The notes: a model not told the origin generated them from the sequence alone. A stretch of DNA of 32,000 nt from Halomicrobium mukohataei DSM 12286 (GCF_000023965.1 NC_013202.1:2550001-2582000), one strand, 5' to 3'; shown: positions 3,425 through 19,965, numbered from the stretch's first letter. Translations and numbers: made by a program.

Positions 3425-3546
3425 ACACAGGCGTTCACGAGCCGGGGGTATGAGCGTTTCCCGCTCGTATTACCTTGTTTTCCACCACCGTGGAGTCTCC
3501 GCTAACTCCGTGACACATAAGTTGTCCTTTCAGTTAGACAGTGTAC

Positions 3547-4830
3547 ATGGACACACAGGTCGGTACAGGGCAAGCAACGGGAGATAACGGTGACGCCGCC
3601 GGTATGGCAGCAGCGCGTGAGGCTCTTAACGGCATTGAAGCTGATAGCCCCGACTTCTGTCAAGTATTCTGTTCACCAGTCTACGACTACGATGCAGTGC
3701 TGTGGGGCATTCGAAGCGTCGTCGGTTCAGACACCGAAGTCATCGGCTGCTCGTCTTCGGGAGAGTTCACTGAAGCGGGCTCGAAAGCAGAGACCGTGAC
3801 AGTTGGCATCGTCGCTTCGGACTCGATGGAGTTCTTTACTACGCTCTCGACGGGGTTGGGTGCCGACCACAAGCGCTGCCTGTTCGAAGCGGTACACGAT
3901 CTTCCGGAACCGGATGCTCCGCAGATCGACCAGTACCCACACCGTGCGGTAATCAACCTCCATGACGGAATCGTCAGCATCGGAGACGAGATCACGAAGC
4001 TCACCGAGCAGTATCTCGACGACGACCAGATTCCGATTGTCGGCGGCTCTGCTGGTGACGACCTTCGGCTAGAGGAGACACACGTATTCTGTAATGGACA
4101 GGTCGAATCAGACGCCGTCGCGCTCGCGCTACTGGCCTCTGAAGATCCATTCGCGGTAACGGTCAACCACGGCCACGAACCGATTTCGGAGCCGATGGCT
4201 GTCACGCGGGCCGAAGGAAGCACAGTCTACGAGCTCGACGGACGGCCCGCTTTCGAGGCCTGGCGAGATGCAATTCAGACAGATGCGAGAGAGTCGTACG
4301 GAATCGACGTCGACGACTTGGATGCCGGTTCTGAGGAGTTTCTAATGTTACTCGGCCGCTACGAGCTGGGTATCGAGTCGGAACCCGACGCCGACGCACA
4401 GAGTATCGCGTCTCGGATTAGAGATTTCGTCGCGTCTGCGTTCATTTCGACGGAAGGGTACAACATCCGGTGGCCGGGACGGACCGCAAATACTGATGGC
4501 TCTCTCGGATTTACCGTAGACATTGCCGAAGGAACTGAGTTACGTGTCACACACAGCAGCAAACCCGATCAGGTGTCGGCCGTCGAAACAGCCGCATCGA
4601 ATGCCGCCGACGAACTCGGCGGCAATGCCGTTGCTGGCGGGTTCGTCTACGACTGTGCGTGTCGGGCGATGATTCTGGGAGATGACTTCGACGACGCAGT
4701 CGACGCGATCAGCCGTTCGATCGATGCACCGTTCGCTGGCTTCGAAACATACGGCGAAGTCTGCTCGGCGGACGAGGACTATACGGGCTATCACAACACC
4801 TCTGCAGTTGTGTTCTTGTTCCCGGAGTAA
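3547..4830 (+). CDS. stand-alone FIST (FIST_N + FIST_C) sensory-domain protein
   Basis: ATG at 3547; the ORF track starts 2 codons earlier at a GTG. FIST_N-like VFCSPVYDYDAVL...VIGCSSSGEF and FIST_C-like GGFVYDCACRAMILG...PFAGFETYGEV motifs. No output domain. Sampled lines are about 52-57% GC, visibly below the neighbours. Confidence 0.8.
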   Translation: MDTQVGTGQATGDNGDAAGMAAAREALNGIEADSPDFCQVFCSPVYDYDAVLWGIRSVVGSDTEVIGCSSSGEFTEAGSKAETVTVGIVASDSMEFFTTLSTGLGADHKRCLFEAVHDLPEPDAPQIDQYPHRAVINLHDGIVSIGDEITKLTEQYLDDDQIPIVGGSAGDDLRLEETHVFCNGQVESDAVALALLASEDPFAVTVNHGHEPISEPMAVTRAEGSTVYELDGRPAFEAWRDAIQTDARESYGIDVDDLDAGSEEFLMLLGRYELGIESEPDADAQSIASRIRDFVASAFISTEGYNIRWPGRTANTDGSLGFTVDIAEGTELRVTHSSKPDQVSAVETAASNAADELGGNAVAGGFVYDCACRAMILGDDFDDAVDAISRSIDAPFAGFETYGEVCSADEDYTGYHNTSAVVFLFPE

Positions 4831-4858
4831 CCGCCGGCAAAAGTCGTCTCCTCGCGGC

Positions 4859-5257
4859 TCAGACCACGTCGTCGTGCAGCGTGATCTCGGCGTGGAGTTC
4901 GTCCTGGAGTGCCGAGTGAACGTGACAGATCTCCTCGCCGAGTTCGACGATCTCCTCGACGTCGTCGCCGAGGTCGGCCTCGACCTTGATCTCGAACGCC
5001 ACCGCGTCGAGGTCGTCGTCGTCGTCGAGATCAGCTGCAACCTCGGCCTCGACAGCGCCCAGATCGTCGTAGCCGGTCTGGTCTGCGGCGACGCGCAGCG
5101 CCGGGATGTAACACGAGACGTAGTCCGCCGCCAGCACCTGGTTCGGAGACGGACCGTCCTCGCTCAGCGCGTCGACGACCAGTTCCCACTCGTCGTCGAT
5201 GACGTTCGTGACCGTATACCCTTCCTCACACGTACTGCTGACTTCGATGTCTGCCAT
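4859..5257 (-). CDS. hypothetical very acidic protein
   Basis: 132-aa ORF, Asp/Glu-rich with halophile-like composition. ATG start with a TATA-like GTTTAC about 30 nt upstream. No recognisable motif. Confidence 0.6.
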   Translation of the reverse strand: MADIEVSSTCEEGYTVTNVIDDEWELVVDALSEDGPSPNQVLAADYVSCYIPALRVAADQTGYDDLGAVEAEVAADLDDDDDLDAVAFEIKVEADLGDDVEEIVELGEEICHVHSALQDELHAEITLHDDVV

Positions 5258-14551: not shown

Positions 14552-15283
14552 TCAGTCAGACGGCTGTGCGTCGTGGTCTGGAGCCATCACCGCGTCCTCG
14601 TCTTCGAACACCTGCGTCCCGAGTTCTTCGACGATCGCCTCGCCACTGAGCGCAAGCAGGCCGAAGCCGACCTTCGTCACCACGTCGAGGTAGGCGACGA
14701 CCAGCGCCGTCGTTTCGAGGTCCATCAGCCCGAGTCCGGACTGTCCGAGGATCCAGATGATCGGATAGATGCCCCAGAGCACGACGACGAAGTTGCGCAG
14801 CGTCTCGTAGACACCGAATCCGACCTCCGAGAGCGTGTCGACGGCCGCGTCTGTGATCGCGCCGTACAGCAGGTAGCCGACGCCGACGAAGGCGAGCCCG
14901 CCCAGCGCGAACAGTCCCCAGGAGAGCAGCCCTCCGATCACCGCGCCCGCGAATCCGAAGACGATCGTCAGGACCTGCAAGCCGACGAGTTTCCCGATCG
15001 TCTCGCGGTCGGCACCCGCGAACAGCCCGAGGAACAGGACGTTCAGGGGTGTCGTCAGCAGCCAGTCGACGTAGCGGGGAATCCAGACGGTGTGGGTTCC
15101 CGTGTCGAAGCCGCCGATGCCGAGTGCCATGATCGCGTAGGCGAAGATCGCGATGCCGGGAATCGAGACCAGCACCGCGTACCGGGTGCGTCTCTCGGCC
15201 GGGACGAGCCTGAAGCCGTAGGCGAGAATTGCCGTCCCAGCGAGCATACCGATCGTACCGAGTGTGAACCAGAGTTCTATCAT
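14552..15283 (-). CDS. sopII: sensory rhodopsin II (phoborhodopsin)
   Basis: 243 aa, 7-TM. RYVDWLLTTPL with Phe at the BR-D96 position. Retinal lysine in DVVTKVGFG. Close overall resemblance, from memory, to Natronomonas pharaonis SRII. Sits 2 nt downstream of the transducer gene. Confidence 0.9.
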   Translation of the reverse strand: MIELWFTLGTIGMLAGTAILAYGFRLVPAERRTRYAVLVSIPGIAIFAYAIMALGIGGFDTGTHTVWIPRYVDWLLTTPLNVLFLGLFAGADRETIGKLVGLQVLTIVFGFAGAVIGGLLSWGLFALGGLAFVGVGYLLYGAITDAAVDTLSEVGFGVYETLRNFVVVLWGIYPIIWILGQSGLGLMDLETTALVVAYLDVVTKVGFGLLALSGEAIVEELGTQVFEDEDAVMAPDHDAQPSD

Positions 15284-15285
15284 CG

Positions 15286-17589
15286 TTAGTCGTCGTCAGT
15301 GGCCGCAGTCGTCTGCTGGCCGGGACTCTCGGCAGACTGCACCGAGAACCGGTCGAGCGCCTGTTCGAGTTCGTCTGCACGCTGTCTGAGTTCCGTCGCG
15401 GAGTCAGACACCTCGCCGATGGAGTGTGCCTGGTCCTCGGCCGCACCGGCGACCGTGTCCGCCTCCGTCGCGGTCTCCTGGCTGATCTCGGTCAGCTTGT
15501 CGATCATCTCCAGCAGCTCCGTCGCCGTCTCTGCCTGCTCTTCGGTCGCCCGGTCGATCTCCTGGATACCGGCGTCGACCTCCTCCGTGTACTCGACAAT
15601 GGTCTCCAGGGCGTTGACGGCCTCTTCGACGGTCTCGACGCCGTCGGTGATCCGCTGGCTGGTCGACTCCATCGTCTCGACGGTGTCGCCGGCCTGTGAC
15701 TGGATGCGCTCGATGCGCTCCTCGATGTCCCCCGCGGCCTCTTTGGTCTCTTCGGCGAGGCCCTTGATCTCGTCTGCGACGACGGCGAAGCCCGCGCCCT
15801 CCGCGTCGGCGTGGGCCGCCTCGATCGAGGCGTTGAGCGCGAGCATGTTGGTCTGCTCGACGATCTGGGTGATCACCGAGACGATCTCGCCGATCTCGTC
15901 GAGATCCTCGTCGAGCGCGTTGATCTCGGCGACGGTCTCCTCGGTCTCGGCCTCGATGCTGTTCATCTCCTCGATGGCCTCCTGGGCCGCACTACGGCCG
16001 TCTTCGCCGACCTCGGCGGCCGACTGGGACGTGTCGGCCACCTGCTGGGCCGACGCCGCCATCTCCTCGGAGGCCGCAGAGAGGTTCTCCATCTCCGAGG
16101 CCGCGTTCTGGAGTCGTTCGCTCTGTTCGTTCGTCCCGTCGAAGATCTCCTGGATCGACTCGCTGACCTGCTGGCTGGCCCGGTCGACCCGCTGGGCGTT
16201 CGTCCCCACGTCGTCGCTCGCCTGCAACACGTTGCTCGCGAAGGACTTCATCTCGGCGATGGTCGTAGAGAGATCCGCCAGCATGGCGTTGATCTCCTCG
16301 CCGACCTCGCTCATCGCGTCGTTCATGCTCTCGGTGTCGACGCGGACGGTGAGGTCGCCGTCGGCCGCAGAGGACAGTGCGTCACTGTACTCGGTGGCCT
16401 TCAGTTCGAGGTGGCCCGTCAGTGCCTCCATCTCTGCCTGCTCTTCCTCGGCGTCCTCACGAGCCTGTTGGGCGTCGCTCTTGGCTTGCTCGGCCTCGCG
16501 TCGTGCCTCCTCGGCGTCTGAGATCGTCTCTCGGAGGTTCGTCCGCATGTCGTCGAGCGACTGGTACAGCGAGCCGATCTCGTCGGTCCGGGCGGTGGTC
16601 AGGTCCACGTCGAGGTCGCCGGCACCCATCTCCTCGGCCCTGTTGGAGAGTCGGCGAAGGGAGACGATCGTGCCGCTCCCGATCGTGACGCCGACGAGCC
16701 CGAGGTTGATCACCGCGAACAACACGATCCCGATCAGGTCGGAGTTGATCTGGGAGCTCAGCGCGTAGGCCTCGCTCCGGTCGGAGTGGACCATCACCGT
16801 CCAGTCGGCCGTTTCGAGCGTCGTCATGCCCATCAGCGTGTCGCCCATCGCCACGAACCCGGATTCACCCGACGCCGGCATCGTCATGCTGCCGTCGTGT
16901 GCCGTGTTGATCTTGCTACTGTTGGGGTGGGCGATGTACTGACCGTCGTCGTTGACCACGGCGGTGTATGACCCGTCACGCTGGTCGGAGAACGCCTCCG
17001 TCCGCTCCTTCAGATCGGTCATGAAGACGATCGCGTGATCGCTGTCGCCCTCGACCGGCGAGAGAACGGCGATGATCGGGTGGTCGACGATCGAGACCTG
17101 GAATGGATCGGTCACGTGCGTGTCGTCCGGCCCCTCGAAGCTCGGGGGGTCGGTCGCGAACGGCGCTCCCTGCTCGCTGGCGTCGACGCCGACGAAGTCC
17201 TCGTTCGAACTGGCCTCGATCTCCATCGTCGTCGTGTCGACGTAGTGGACTGCGACGACGTCGGCCGGGAGCCTGTCGTTGTCCTGTAAGGTGTTCAACT
17301 GCGCCTGTATCTCGCTGGTCGACCCGGACTCGAAGACCGGCAGCGCAGAGGTCATCCGGACGCTCTGTCGAGCCGACTCGAGCCACGCGTCGATCTGGTC
17401 GGCCTGAGTCGCCGAGGTCGCGCGCAGATCGGACGCTACGTCGGACTCCAGCTCGTCTGAAGCCTGGACGCTCACCACAGCGCCGACGGCGATGACGACG
17501 ATCACCGCCAGCGCCAGCGCGAGTCCGAGTCGCAGGGCGTAACTGTCCCCGATAAACTCAGGAAGGAGAGATGATGTCTCAGAACTCAT
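15286..17589 (-). CDS. htrII: sensory rhodopsin II transducer (methyl-accepting protein with large extracellular domain)
   Basis: 767 aa. TM1 about residues 20-42, roughly 240-aa extracellular domain, TM2 about residues 283-305, HAMP, and a highly conserved MCP signalling hairpin ([15 protein letters not shown]). Size and architecture resemble Halobacterium HtrII. Confidence 0.9.
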
Positions 17590-17846
17590 CGTGTCGATGC
17601 TGGGCGTTCACGGATTAATAGATTCGCGCGCAGTTTTCAGCGGTGATAAGCGGATTCTGAAACGCGGGGGTCTCCCGGGACGGTGTCCCCGTCGAGGGCC
17701 GATCTGTCGTCGCCAGAACCCATAGAACTGTGGGTATCGCCCACCGATTCGTGACGTGTCGGCCGTGCCGGACACGCCACCGAGTCGTCGGACACGTCGC
17801 CTCGCCGTTCGTCCCGCCGTCACTTCGTCTTATACTGGCTGTAACT

Positions 17847-17854
17847 GTTTCAAG
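17847..17854. repeat. left copy of the 8-bp target-site duplication GTTTCAAG
   Basis: Identical octamer immediately outside both outer ends of the composite element (17847-17854 and 19124-19131). Confidence 0.6.
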
Positions 17855-18149
17855 TGCTCTGTTGAATCCGCAGACGGCACTGGGATTGAGGCTGAAGATA
17901 CAGTTATCAGACTCCATTGGTGGCGAATTCTTACGACCGACCTTCGATTGATGGGTCAGCTTTGGAGAGCGAAAGCAGATTCTGACTCGCTATCTGTTGC
18001 CGACTCCATCTGACACACTGGACGCTATAGTAGCCATTGAAAATCAATGCACACCCGATCGCACGACGGCAGTGCGATCGGTGTGTAAATCGTTTCAATT
18101 GTTACTATAGCCCGTCGACTTGGCCGCCATCACCGGATTCAACAGAGTA
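17855..18149 (+). mobile_element. MITE copy 1 (295 bp)
   Basis: Starts TGCTCTGTTGAATCCG and ends CGGATTCAACAGAGTA (16-bp TIR, 1 mismatch). 289/295 identical to copy 2 with no indels. Confidence 0.8.
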
Positions 18150-18213
18150 GAGTCAGGCTTATCCGAGATCCAGATTGCGGTGTGATTATTACAGCATTCC
18201 CAGAATTATTCGT

Positions 18214-18777
18214 ATGAAATCCGTTGAACTATCTGTGAAATTCGACGAGAACCCAGTTAGTCAGGCGATGGTCACTGGGAGAATTCAGGTTGTCGCAGAC
18301 GGACAGACCTTAACTCGTCTTATTGACGAGAACGGCGAACTCGTTACCGACAGGACGGCCCCATGCGGATACGTCGGAACACGTATTTTATTTGATTTGC
18401 TCAATCTAACGAAAGCGGTGAGTTTACTGAAACGCGGCAATGTAGGTCTTTACGAGCAGTATCGATCCGAATTTACTGGAGAACGGTTTGACTTGTTATT
18501 TGAACGGCTGTCGGATAACGCTGTCCGGATCTGTTATCAAGATCGAACGACCAAGTCCAAATCGGTTGAGCATCCAGCACCACCTGCTGAAGTGGCATTG
18601 GGTGCTTCTGTAGAACTTGATGAGCTCTGCGATCAGGTGATCTCATGTGATGAACGACTTCTCAAGTTTGCAAGAGAGGCTGATTTGGATGTTGAAGAGC
18701 CGCCGCTTGCCGCCATCTCAGAGATTGTGAGTGAGTTGGAGAGATTGCGGGAGGATTACGAGGGCTTCCCACAGTGA
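18214..18777 (+). CDS. hypothetical protein, cargo of the composite element
   Basis: 187 aa from ATG 18214; the track ORF starts at TTG 18175. TATA-like ATTATTA lies about 25 nt upstream. Low GC. No motif I recognise. It is the only ORF of at least 60 aa between the two MITE copies. Confidence 0.6.
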   Translation: MKSVELSVKFDENPVSQAMVTGRIQVVADGQTLTRLIDENGELVTDRTAPCGYVGTRILFDLLNLTKAVSLLKRGNVGLYEQYRSEFTGERFDLLFERLSDNAVRICYQDRTTKSKSVEHPAPPAEVALGASVELDELCDQVISCDERLLKFAREADLDVEEPPLAAISEIVSELERLREDYEGFPQ

Positions 18778-18828
18778 TTCAGTTCTCCATCTAAGCTTTT
18801 ACTGAACAGCATCGCGTTAAGTTTGGCG

Positions 18829-19123
18829 TGCTCTGTTGAATCCGCAGACGGCACTGGGATTGAGGCTGAAGACACAGTTATCAGACTCCATTGGTGACGA
18901 ATTCTTACAACCGACCTTCGATTGATGGGTCAGCTTTGGAGAGCGAAAGCAGATTCTGACTCGCTATTTGTTGCCGAGTCCATCTGACACACTGGACGCT
19001 ATAGTAGCCATTGAAAATCAATGCACACCCGATCGCACGACAGCAGTGCGATCGGTGTGTAAATCGTTTCAATTGTTACTATAGCCCGTCGACTTGGCCG
19101 CCATCACCGGATTCAACAGAGTA
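18829..19123 (+). mobile_element. MITE copy 2 (295 bp)
   Basis: Same ends and orientation as copy 1. Six substitutions relative to copy 1. Confidence 0.8.
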
Positions 19124-19131
19124 GTTTCAAG
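19124..19131. repeat. right copy of the 8-bp target-site duplication GTTTCAAG
   Basis: See 17847-17854. Confidence 0.6.
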
Positions 19132-19184
19132 AGATTCGCGATACGGGATCGCGAAATTCTTCACAGACGTACAGCCGGTAGTAT
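19132..19184. repeat. right part of a small palindromic intergenic element split by the transposon (left part 17832-17854)
   Basis: GTACAGCCGGTAGTAT (19169-19184) is the inverted partner of ATACTGGCTGTA (17832-17843). Internal hairpin TTCGCGAT-ACGGG-ATCGCGAA. After removing the insertion and one TSD copy the element is 76 bp, similar in ends, length and layout to 23237-23315. Confidence 0.45.
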
Positions 19185-19254
19185 CAGAAACGAAAGGCTC
19201 CGCTGTGGGCAACTCGGACTGGGTTTTATCCGCTGTCGGCCCGAGCTACCCCGT

Positions 19255-19965
19255 ATGTCAGTCGAATTTGACTTCGACGGCAGCGTCGTACTGGTGACCG
19301 GCGTCGGCGGTGCTCTCGGTGGTGCCGTCGCTCGTGCGTTCGACGACGCCGGTGCGACGGTCTGTGGAGCCGACATCGTCGCCCCGGAGAGCGAGGACTT
19401 CCTGCTCGACGAGACGGAAGCCATCGACTACTACCAGGGCGATTTCACCGACGAGGACGACGTGGCCGACATCGTGGCCGGTGTGGTCGAAGAGCACGGC
19501 CGCCTCGACGCCCTCTGTAACATCGCCGGGACGTGGCGCGGCGGCGATCCGATCCACGAGACCGACGCCGACACGTTCGACTTCCTGTTCGACGTAAATC
19601 TCAAGACGATGTTTCTGGCGTCGAAACACGCGCTTCCGCACCTCCGAGAGAGTGAGGGTGCCGTCGTCTCGGTCTCGGCGCGCTCCTCGCTTGAGGGTGG
19701 CGAGGGCGACGGAATCTACCGCGCGACCAAGGCCGGCGTGCGACTTCTGACCGAGACGATTGCCGCCGAAAACGAGGGGGTCGTCCGGGCCAACGCGGTC
19801 ATGCCGAGCGTCATCGACACGCCGATGAACCGCGAGATGATGCCCGACGCCGACTTCGAGACGTGGGTCGACCCGGACGATATCGCGACGATGATGCTGT
19901 TCCTGTGCTCGGAGGGAGCCCCCGTCACCAGCGGCGCTGCGGTCCCGGTGTACGGCGAAGCCTGA
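19255..19965 (+). CDS. short-chain dehydrogenase/reductase (SDR) family oxidoreductase
   Basis: 236 aa. Motifs: TGVGGALGGAVA (TGxxxGxG), NIAG, and YRATK (YxxxK). Confidence 0.9.
   Translation: MSVEFDFDGSVVLVTGVGGALGGAVARAFDDAGATVCGADIVAPESEDFLLDETEAIDYYQGDFTDEDDVADIVAGVVEEHGRLDALCNIAGTWRGGDPIHETDADTFDFLFDVNLKTMFLASKHALPHLRESEGAVVSVSARSSLEGGEGDGIYRATKAGVRLLTETIAAENEGVVRANAVMPSVIDTPMNREMMPDADFETWVDPDDIATMMLFLCSEGAPVTSGAAVPVYGEA

Follow-up and report, generated by a model that had tools for sequence, protein, structure and literature searches.

IS5-family ISs and MITEs are well known in haloarchaea (PMC3119063, PMC7002104), and gene-carrying MITE pairs have been described in bacteria, where most of them enclose resistance genes. 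The bacterial examples include a pair of 439-bp MITEs around class 1 integrons in Acinetobacter and a MITE-297 pair around a 76-kb mer region, and in these systems two transposase-less copies bracket a passenger whose mobilization is presumed to occur in trans (PMC6382973). Archaeal MITEs figure in a 2024 review of MITEs in prokaryotes, which lists no archaeal composite made by a MITE pair (PMC10969869), and our literature search found no archaeal MITE pair moving a gene as a unit, the only related case being a MITE-flanked integration in Halobacterium. In that case, from Halobacterium salinarum 91-R6, two copies of MITEHsal3 with a hybrid duplication lie around a 164-kb integrated region, and the authors' reading is that the MITE came first and was then targeted by the integration (PMC7002104). 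Direct repeats with an 8-bp duplication on the outside only are also the arrangement of the pseudo-compound transposons formed by IS26/IS6 elements, whose passenger can exist as a circle together with one copy of the element (PMC7986276).

The locus that we describe here resembles the bacterial MITE pairs in its plan and differs in its contents, since it is archaeal and encloses a single gene of no known function from a virus-like element, whereas the bacterial pairs carry resistance determinants. The window, by which we mean the whole 32-kb stretch of DNA that was analyzed, belongs to the Halomicrobium mukohataei chromosome and holds ordinary chromosomal genes, with a sensory-rhodopsin/transducer pair immediately upstream of the unit and a short-chain dehydrogenase (SDR) gene immediately downstream. 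Two 295-bp segments in the same orientation (copy 1, 17855-18149; copy 2, 18829-19123; both on the plus strand) form direct repeats that lie 974 nt apart, and a repeat search of the window returned one direct-repeat family (300 nt, 97%). The original prediction of a repeat pair 289/295 identical and free of indels was borne out by direct comparison, in which the copies differ by six substitutions, at element positions 45, 69, 81, 140, 150, and 214, and by no indels. Each copy is bounded by 16-bp inverted ends (17855-17870 and 18134-18149 in copy 1; 18829-18844 and 19108-19123 in copy 2), the left being TGCTCTGTTGAATCCG and the right the reverse complement of TACTCTGTTGAATCCG; the terminal inverted repeats that had been proposed are therefore present, with 15 of 16 positions complementary. 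The 32-kb window contains exactly four occurrences of the 14-nt core CTCTGTTGAATCCG, where chance alone would give 0.22.

Direct reading also agrees with the earlier statement that one octamer marks the outer ends only. GTTTCAAG abuts the left end of copy 1 (17847-17854) and the right end of copy 2 (19124-19131), while the inner junctions carry the different octamers GAGTCAGG after copy 1 and GTTTGGCG before copy 2; the chance of an 8-nt match at two fixed positions is ~1.5e-5. Two element copies thus bracket a 679-bp passenger segment (18150-18828, plus strand), with the duplication at the outer ends only, which is the layout of a composite transposon. The low GC content reported earlier was recovered as well, at 50% for the MITE and 48% for the passenger versus 65% for the window, and the chromosome CP045142.1 matches the 1.6 kb that surround the unit (17700-19300) at 100% identity. 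As had been claimed, neither the unit nor the rest of the window contains a transposase according to Pfam searches (large ORFs outside 8214-28777 and the Pfam matches within that interval) and tblastn with the cognate transposase described below.

We searched one genome per species with the 18-nt left end of the element and obtained at least 120 matching stretches. Among the matches listed, nearly all are in Halorubrum, Halopenitus, Haloplanus, Halolamina, and Halomicrobium, and pairing each left end with the nearest right end among these matches gave two size classes, of ~212 bp and 935 bp. The 935-bp class is an autonomous element with one ORF, which encodes a 276-aa DDE transposase with a DDE_Tnp_1 domain (Pfam, 3e-20) that scores 183.5 bits against the NCBIfam model NF033579 transpos_IS5_2 (cut-off, 140). 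Its PGAP-annotated plasmid relatives are labelled "IS5 family" or "IS5-like ISHma10 / ISH28 / ISHvo1," and its nearest named transposase relatives are ISHma10 (56-57% amino acid identity) and ISH28 and ISHvo1 (about 50%). The short class and the IS have only ~38 nt at the left and ~27 nt at the right in common, an anatomy that is usual for a MITE. The 935-bp Halorubrum IS (L038) and a ~939-bp IS on an H. mukohataei plasmid (L138) have exactly the left end TGCTCTGTTGAATCCG of the Halomicrobium repeats, and their right ends are closely similar to that of the MITE. The 295-bp element has no credible ORF and is small, multi-copy, and non-coding. Judged by these features, the repeats are genuine MITEs of an IS5-family insertion sequence.

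The same comparison bears on where the element ends. Among the matches listed, which come from other haloarchaea, 63 complete members have both flanks available, and 26 of these, all solitary, are abutted at their TG...CA ends by perfect 8-bp duplications (12 MITEs of 176-214 bp, 10 ISs of 935 bp, and 4 of other sizes); a duplication of any other length was found in none of the 63. Because these 26 perfect duplications directly abut the ends, GTTTCAAG is external to the element and 8 bp is the duplication length of the family, and GTTTCAAG is a genuine target-site duplication, as the original prediction supposed. Elements of the ISH1 subgroup make 8-bp duplications. The guess that the partner element belongs to the IS1595/ISH4 group was mistaken: the cognate IS scores as IS5, and no IS1595 model is among its NCBIfam matches. 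We also rejected IS6/IS26, which is suggested by the CTGTT in the ends and by the direct orientation of the copies, since the transposase types as IS5 and the tips are TG...CA, not GG.

The family as a whole is like the haloarchaeal IS5-family ISs and MITEs in its 276-aa DDE_Tnp_1 transposase, its 935-bp IS, its TG...CA ends with inverted repeats of 16 bp or longer, its 8-bp duplication, and the confinement of MITE-IS similarity to the ends. It departs from them in the length of the Halomicrobium subfamily, which is 295 bp rather than ~212 bp because an 86-nt hairpin is nested inside.

The transposase that could act on these ends has close relatives in Halomicrobium. The ~939-bp IS on the H. 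mukohataei JP60 plasmid, the only cognate IS that we found in H. mukohataei, is a family member with perfect ends whose transposase is 85% identical to that of the Halorubrum element; a reading of its DNA suggests an apparent frameshift 29 codons before the end, past the catalytic residues. A 237-aa version with 99% identity is encoded on the H. katesii chromosome, and intact 275-279-aa versions with 87-94% identity occur in H. urmianum and in metagenomes. On this evidence the cognate transposase appears to be present in the lineage. Mobilization of the unit, if it occurs at all, must be in trans, and to that extent the original prediction is supported.

The 295-bp copy consists of a 213-bp Halomicrobium MITE plus an insert of ~86 nt with the core CTATAGTAGCC...GTTACTATAG. 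In copy 1 the insert occupies 18024-18111 (plus strand), where it is recognized by its absence from a near-identical 213-bp H. katesii MITE, and in copy 2 it occupies 18998-19085 (plus strand). Stand-alone copies of the insert occupy 223 places in 59 plasmid records of haloarchaea, covering at least 17 genera with up to 19 copies per replicon, and they are nearly always intergenic and have no constant neighboring gene. The insert folds as one long hairpin of 26 pairs, 8 of which show compensatory changes in an alignment of 15 copies. An Rfam scan of 17500-19500 gave chance-level matches only, and the hairpin is therefore not a curated RNA family. Filled and empty hairpin junctions can be read as a TA duplication in a target resembling CTAG, with one base misfit. 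Searching the literature with the sequence string and with keywords turned up nothing relevant to the hairpin, and the hairpin is probably the least-described thing in the region.

The nearest described counterparts of the hairpin are the SMRs of Haloquadratum walsbyi, the small mobile repeats, which it resembles in being small and transposase-less, in having inverted ends, in lacking a relationship to known transposons, and in tending to insert into other mobile elements (PMC3119063). According to their description the SMRs duplicate no target sequence (PMC3119063), whereas the nested repeat is a hairpin over its full length, is conserved across at least 17 genera, and may make a TA duplication.

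The passenger contains an ORF of 187 aa on the plus strand (18214-18777) without a known domain: it has no Pfam or NCBIfam match. Its AlphaFold model (pLDDT, 72) consists of two beta-beta-beta-beta-alpha repeats and has no significant match in the PDB, the top non-significant matches being nucleic-acid binders of the Whirly/PUR/MRP type. The protein is present letter for letter in assembly GCA_003992375.1, and homologues of the ORF number four among 5.8 billion proteins. The closest one outside the locus is encoded by Halomicrobium sp. IBSBa (83% amino acid and 87.5% nucleotide identity; L126, 5936-6592), where it sits in a run of small genes beside genes with pleolipovirus envelope (Viral_env_HRPV) and VP3 domains and thus lies inside a pleolipovirus-like integrated element. 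The earlier description of the ORF as foreign accords with this relationship. Relative to the IBSBa homologue the ORF has a dN/dS of 0.22, and it therefore is, or recently was, a real gene.

The limits of the homology to IBSBa are informative about how the passenger was cut. Nucleotide homology begins at the first base after copy 1 and ends ~20 nt short of copy 2, and it takes in the last ~64 nt of the gene that lies upstream in IBSBa, leaving a 3' remnant of that gene in the passenger (18150-18217, plus strand). At the point where homology starts, the octamer is GGGTCAGG in IBSBa versus GAGTCAGG at the locus. The passenger is therefore foreign DNA, a segment of a virus-like element whose boundaries coincide with insertion points of MITEs, and such a cut implies a donor with two MITEs flanking the gene. 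We found no two-MITE donor and no second copy of the passenger or the unit among the 5.8 billion proteins, in viral contigs searched by protein and by MITE pattern, in phage and plasmid records searched by tblastn, or in two metagenome pattern scans. The additional MITE-ORF-MITE loci with other duplications that the original prediction proposed to look for are thus missing from the protein, viral, phage/plasmid, and metagenome collections, and all passenger searches together returned the same locus and three more distant homologues only.

We compared the SDR locus in seven other sources. Halomicrobium katesii DSM 19301 carries exactly one 295-bp MITE there, in the same position and orientation and with GTTTCAAG on both sides: its junctions read CTATAACT and GTTTCAAG to the left of an element running TGCTCTG...CAGAGTA, followed by GTTTCAAG and AGATTCGCG to the right. 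The other six sources (KBTZ05, a second H. mukohataei assembly, LC1Hm, IBSBa, a JGI metagenome, and an ENA MAG) are MITE-less, with an intergenic region of 324-326 nt. The empty site that had been sought in relatives was not among them, as these six also lack ~75 nt around the target and H. katesii holds its solitary MITE. The paired state occurs in near-identical H. mukohataei assemblies only, and the flanks are 92-98% identical between H. mukohataei and H. katesii, so that the species split is old at this locus.

Of the 295 positions, 4 distinguish the solitary MITE of H. katesii from copy 2 and 8 distinguish it from copy 1; at the six positions where copies 1 and 2 disagree, it has the copy 2 base in five cases. 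We polarized these variants with a hairpin-less 213-bp H. katesii MITE and the hairpin consensus as outgroups, which identified 140T and 214A as derived bases that copy 2 has in common with the H. katesii copy. Copy 2 is thus the orthologue of the solitary copy. Because copy 1 lacks both derived bases, it must derive from a different copy of the MITE, and its origin by duplication of the resident element in place, replicative duplication included, was rejected on these grounds. By its variants, copy 1 would be the "incoming," or outgroup, copy. Position 121, at which copies 1 and 2 agree with each other and not with H. katesii, hints at some gene conversion between the two copies.

These observations change what can be read from the outer-only duplication, which the original prediction took as the signature of the whole unit transposing as one piece. 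Since a solitary MITE in H. katesii is flanked by the same GTTTCAAG, the duplication is no proof of en-bloc transposition of 1,269 bp. This orthologous solitary copy puts en-bloc movement in question at the Halomicrobium locus, unlike in the bacterial MITE pairs. The paired and single states differ by one recombination between MITE copies, and because passing from single to paired and from paired to single are exact reverses, the six variants fit both directions. Either direction needs a crossover to the left of position 140, or to the left of position 45 if the copy 1 variants are old.

We infer the order of events, and the recombination step within it, as follows, and we lean toward a single copy having come first over en-bloc movement having come first. 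A solitary 295-bp MITE, mobilized in trans by the 935-bp IS, would have inserted upstream of the SDR gene and created the GTTTCAAG duplication before H. mukohataei and H. katesii split, and would survive today as copy 2 and as the H. katesii copy. Elsewhere, one gene of a pleolipovirus-like element would have come to lie between two MITEs of the 295-bp subfamily, inserted at the target octamers GAGTCAGG and GTTTGGCG. In the H. mukohataei lineage, homologous recombination between this donor and the resident MITE would then have added copy 1 and the 679-bp passenger, either as a 974-bp circle that had been excised from the donor between its direct repeats and then integrated, or by gap repair, in which a break in the resident MITE is repaired with the donor as template. 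Both routes would leave the old duplication on the outside. We assign a probability of roughly 0.5 to this account, in which the single copy is older and the passenger and copy 1 were added later by recombination.

Several observations count in its favor. The homology to IBSBa begins at the inner MITE end and the octamer there differs, as it would at a donor MITE insertion site; the paired state is confined to near-identical H. mukohataei assemblies, without a second copy of the unit in the collections searched; and the reading frame of the H. mukohataei plasmid IS is apparently broken, while recombination needs no active transposase. Direct repeats of 295 bp spaced 679 bp apart are expected to collapse or to be homogenized over time in a recombination-proficient haloarchaeon. 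Six scattered differences have been kept despite the old split, which favors a recent juxtaposition of the two copies, although this argument from persistence fails if the passenger is under selection, and the dN/dS value marks it as a real gene, now or recently. The same order, MITE and then integration, was proposed for the MITEHsal3 pair of H. salinarum 91-R6, where foreign DNA likewise joins a resident MITE and the original duplication ends up outside (PMC7002104); that case involves 164 kb of plasmid-like DNA with one partial copy, and the Halomicrobium locus 679 bp with both copies complete. Against single copy first stand the lack of a donor with two MITEs around the gene in our searches, the hint of gene conversion at position 121, and the larger number of steps than one composite transposition followed by one deletion would take.

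That shorter sequence of events is the main rival: the 1,269-bp unit would have moved whole, its donor a provirus or plasmid and its working ends the left one of copy 1 and the right one of copy 2, and would have created GTTTCAAG on arrival, and H. katesii would later have lost copy 1 and the passenger by direct-repeat recombination, much as solo LTRs form. It explains directly why a duplication of the length typical of the family lies at the outer ends only, why the inner junctions resemble former target octamers, and why the passenger homology starts at the MITE edge; at 1,269 bp the unit is only slightly longer than the 935-bp IS moved by the same transposase, copies of the cognate IS occur in Halomicrobium, direct repeats readily lose the DNA between them, and fewer steps are needed. 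It would also require, however, that the pair, with its six unhomogenized differences, outlast the whole divergence of H. mukohataei and H. katesii, and that the deleting crossover fall near the left end, since H. katesii equals copy 2 at five of the six sites, and the unit is at one locus only in all collections searched. We hold this reading to be a serious contender that is somewhat less probable than not. The recombinational addition of copy 1 to an older copy 2 can be compared as well with an addition carried out by transposase, in which a circle of MITE plus passenger joins the resident MITE without a new duplication, or a replicative cointegrate forms, on the model of IS26-type translocatable units and pseudo-compound transposons. 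Direct orientation and an outer duplication only are hallmarks of the latter (PMC7986276), the CTGTT in the end sequence recalls IS6-family ends, and copy 2 is undamaged and resembles the H. katesii copy along almost all of its length. The IS26/IS6 systems depend on an IS6 transposase, whereas the Halomicrobium locus involves an IS5 transposase, with a score above the NF033579 cut-off and no IS6-type Pfam match, and has non-coding MITEs as its flanking elements. A replicative copy of the resident MITE is also excluded by the derived bases missing from copy 1. We know of no targeted conservative reaction in IS5-family elements, which further counts against a transposase-mediated addition, and we give it little credence.

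One could also suppose that the solitary MITE of H. katesii and a composite in H. mukohataei arrived independently in the same hot-spot octamer. The family does show a weak target preference, with many duplications beginning with G (e.g., GTTTCTTG and GTTAGAAG), but the 26 duplications are otherwise diverse, so that specificity is not strict, and two independent hits would have to agree in position, orientation, and 295-bp subfamily while copy 2 and the H. katesii copy happened to have two derived bases in common. Independent insertions are very unlikely on this comparison. A bolder combined proposition is that a working MITE-based composite transposon moved a captured pleolipovirus-like gene into a haloarchaeal chromosome and that the hairpin, as an invader of other mobile elements, represents a family of small mobile repeats or structured RNAs that spans the haloarchaea and has yet to be described; we consider this rather unlikely.

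If the composite reading were true, the locus would be the first documented capture of a gene by a MITE pair in archaea. Under either order of events it is a compact case, in which the element family, the autonomous partner, the virus-like source of the passenger, and the orthologous single-copy state can all be read from sequence, and its value as a tidy and useful example lies in the viral origin of the passenger together with the solitary orthologue, although it would not surprise a specialist. It carries the caution that an outer-only duplication around direct repeats is not proof of en-bloc transposition, because recombination at a pre-existing solitary element looks alike. Genome annotation would gain from names for three families, those of the 295-bp MITE, the 935-bp IS, and the 86-nt hairpin repeat.

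Both MITE copies contain a nested 86-nt palindromic repeat, CTATAGTAGCC...GTTACTATAG (window 18024-18111 and 18998-19085), whose hairpin fold carries 8 compensatory pairs. Haloarchaeal plasmids also carry it as a stand-alone element: 223 such places were located across 59 records, representing at least 17 genera. Among the comparison sequences, further copies lie at L001 3001-3088 (from a plasmid of H. mukohataei JP60), L003 1058-1145 and 3013-3100, L039 3997-4084, L137 1501-1588 and, at about 1200-1288, in each of L139-L146. An Rfam scan of window 17500-19500 returned no family for the hairpin, and a literature search by sequence string and keywords found nothing matching it; by description, it is similar to the 'small mobile repeats' of Haloquadratum. 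We suggest that the hairpin may duplicate a TA within a CTAG-like target. The stand-alone JP60 plasmid copy has directly upstream of it about 2.5 tandem copies of an ~83-nt unit (GGCTGTCGGCCTGTGACGATGGACGACACC...; L001 2760-2960), placed between a gene for an HTH-domain protein and one for a P-type ATPase. On a plasmid of Natronococcus sp. CG52 (L136 1501-1628), one copy of the hairpin bears in its apical loop an extra 41-nt GC-rich insertion that is itself a hairpin, and this hairpin within a hairpin is a third level of nesting.

The cognate IS5-family element on the JP60 plasmid (L138 1415-2353, corresponding to NZ_CP039376.1 about 157694-158632) has a perfect left end, has no entry in the gene table used and is not flanked by an 8-bp duplication. 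Judging from its nucleotide sequence, its reading frame is apparently disrupted by a 1-nt deletion 29 codons before the end, past the catalytic residues. A degenerate MITE of the same family, ~195 bp long and bounded by GCTCTGTTAAATCCT and GCGCTGTTGAACCCG, was noted downstream of the short-chain dehydrogenase (SDR) locus in the sister species H. katesii (L134 6109-6303), and nothing equivalent occurs at the corresponding position in the window.

The predicted structure of the passenger protein (window 18214-18777) shows two beta-beta-beta-beta-alpha repeats, and its top matches in the PDB were single-strand nucleic acid binders of the Whirly/PUR/MRP type, at E values of 0.02-0.2 that are not significant.

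Only the window strain and H. katesii have the roughly 75 nt that surround the insertion site (window about 17830-17846 and 19132-19190, compared with L128, L130, L131, L133 and L147), and six other Halomicrobium sources have a short unrelated stretch in their place. The MITE could long ago have been lost imprecisely, along with its flanks, or a lineage-specific insertion could account for the difference. Elsewhere in the window, GC content is reduced to 56-60% at 3501-5000, a segment spanning the gene for a FIST-domain protein (3541-4830). Two closely adjacent minus-strand genes at 14552-17589 encode a sensory-rhodopsin-like protein of 243 aa and its HAMP/MCP transducer of 767 aa. The MITE site is upstream of both the transducer gene (258 nt from the start codon) and the SDR gene (124 nt from the start codon), and therefore may touch both promoters.
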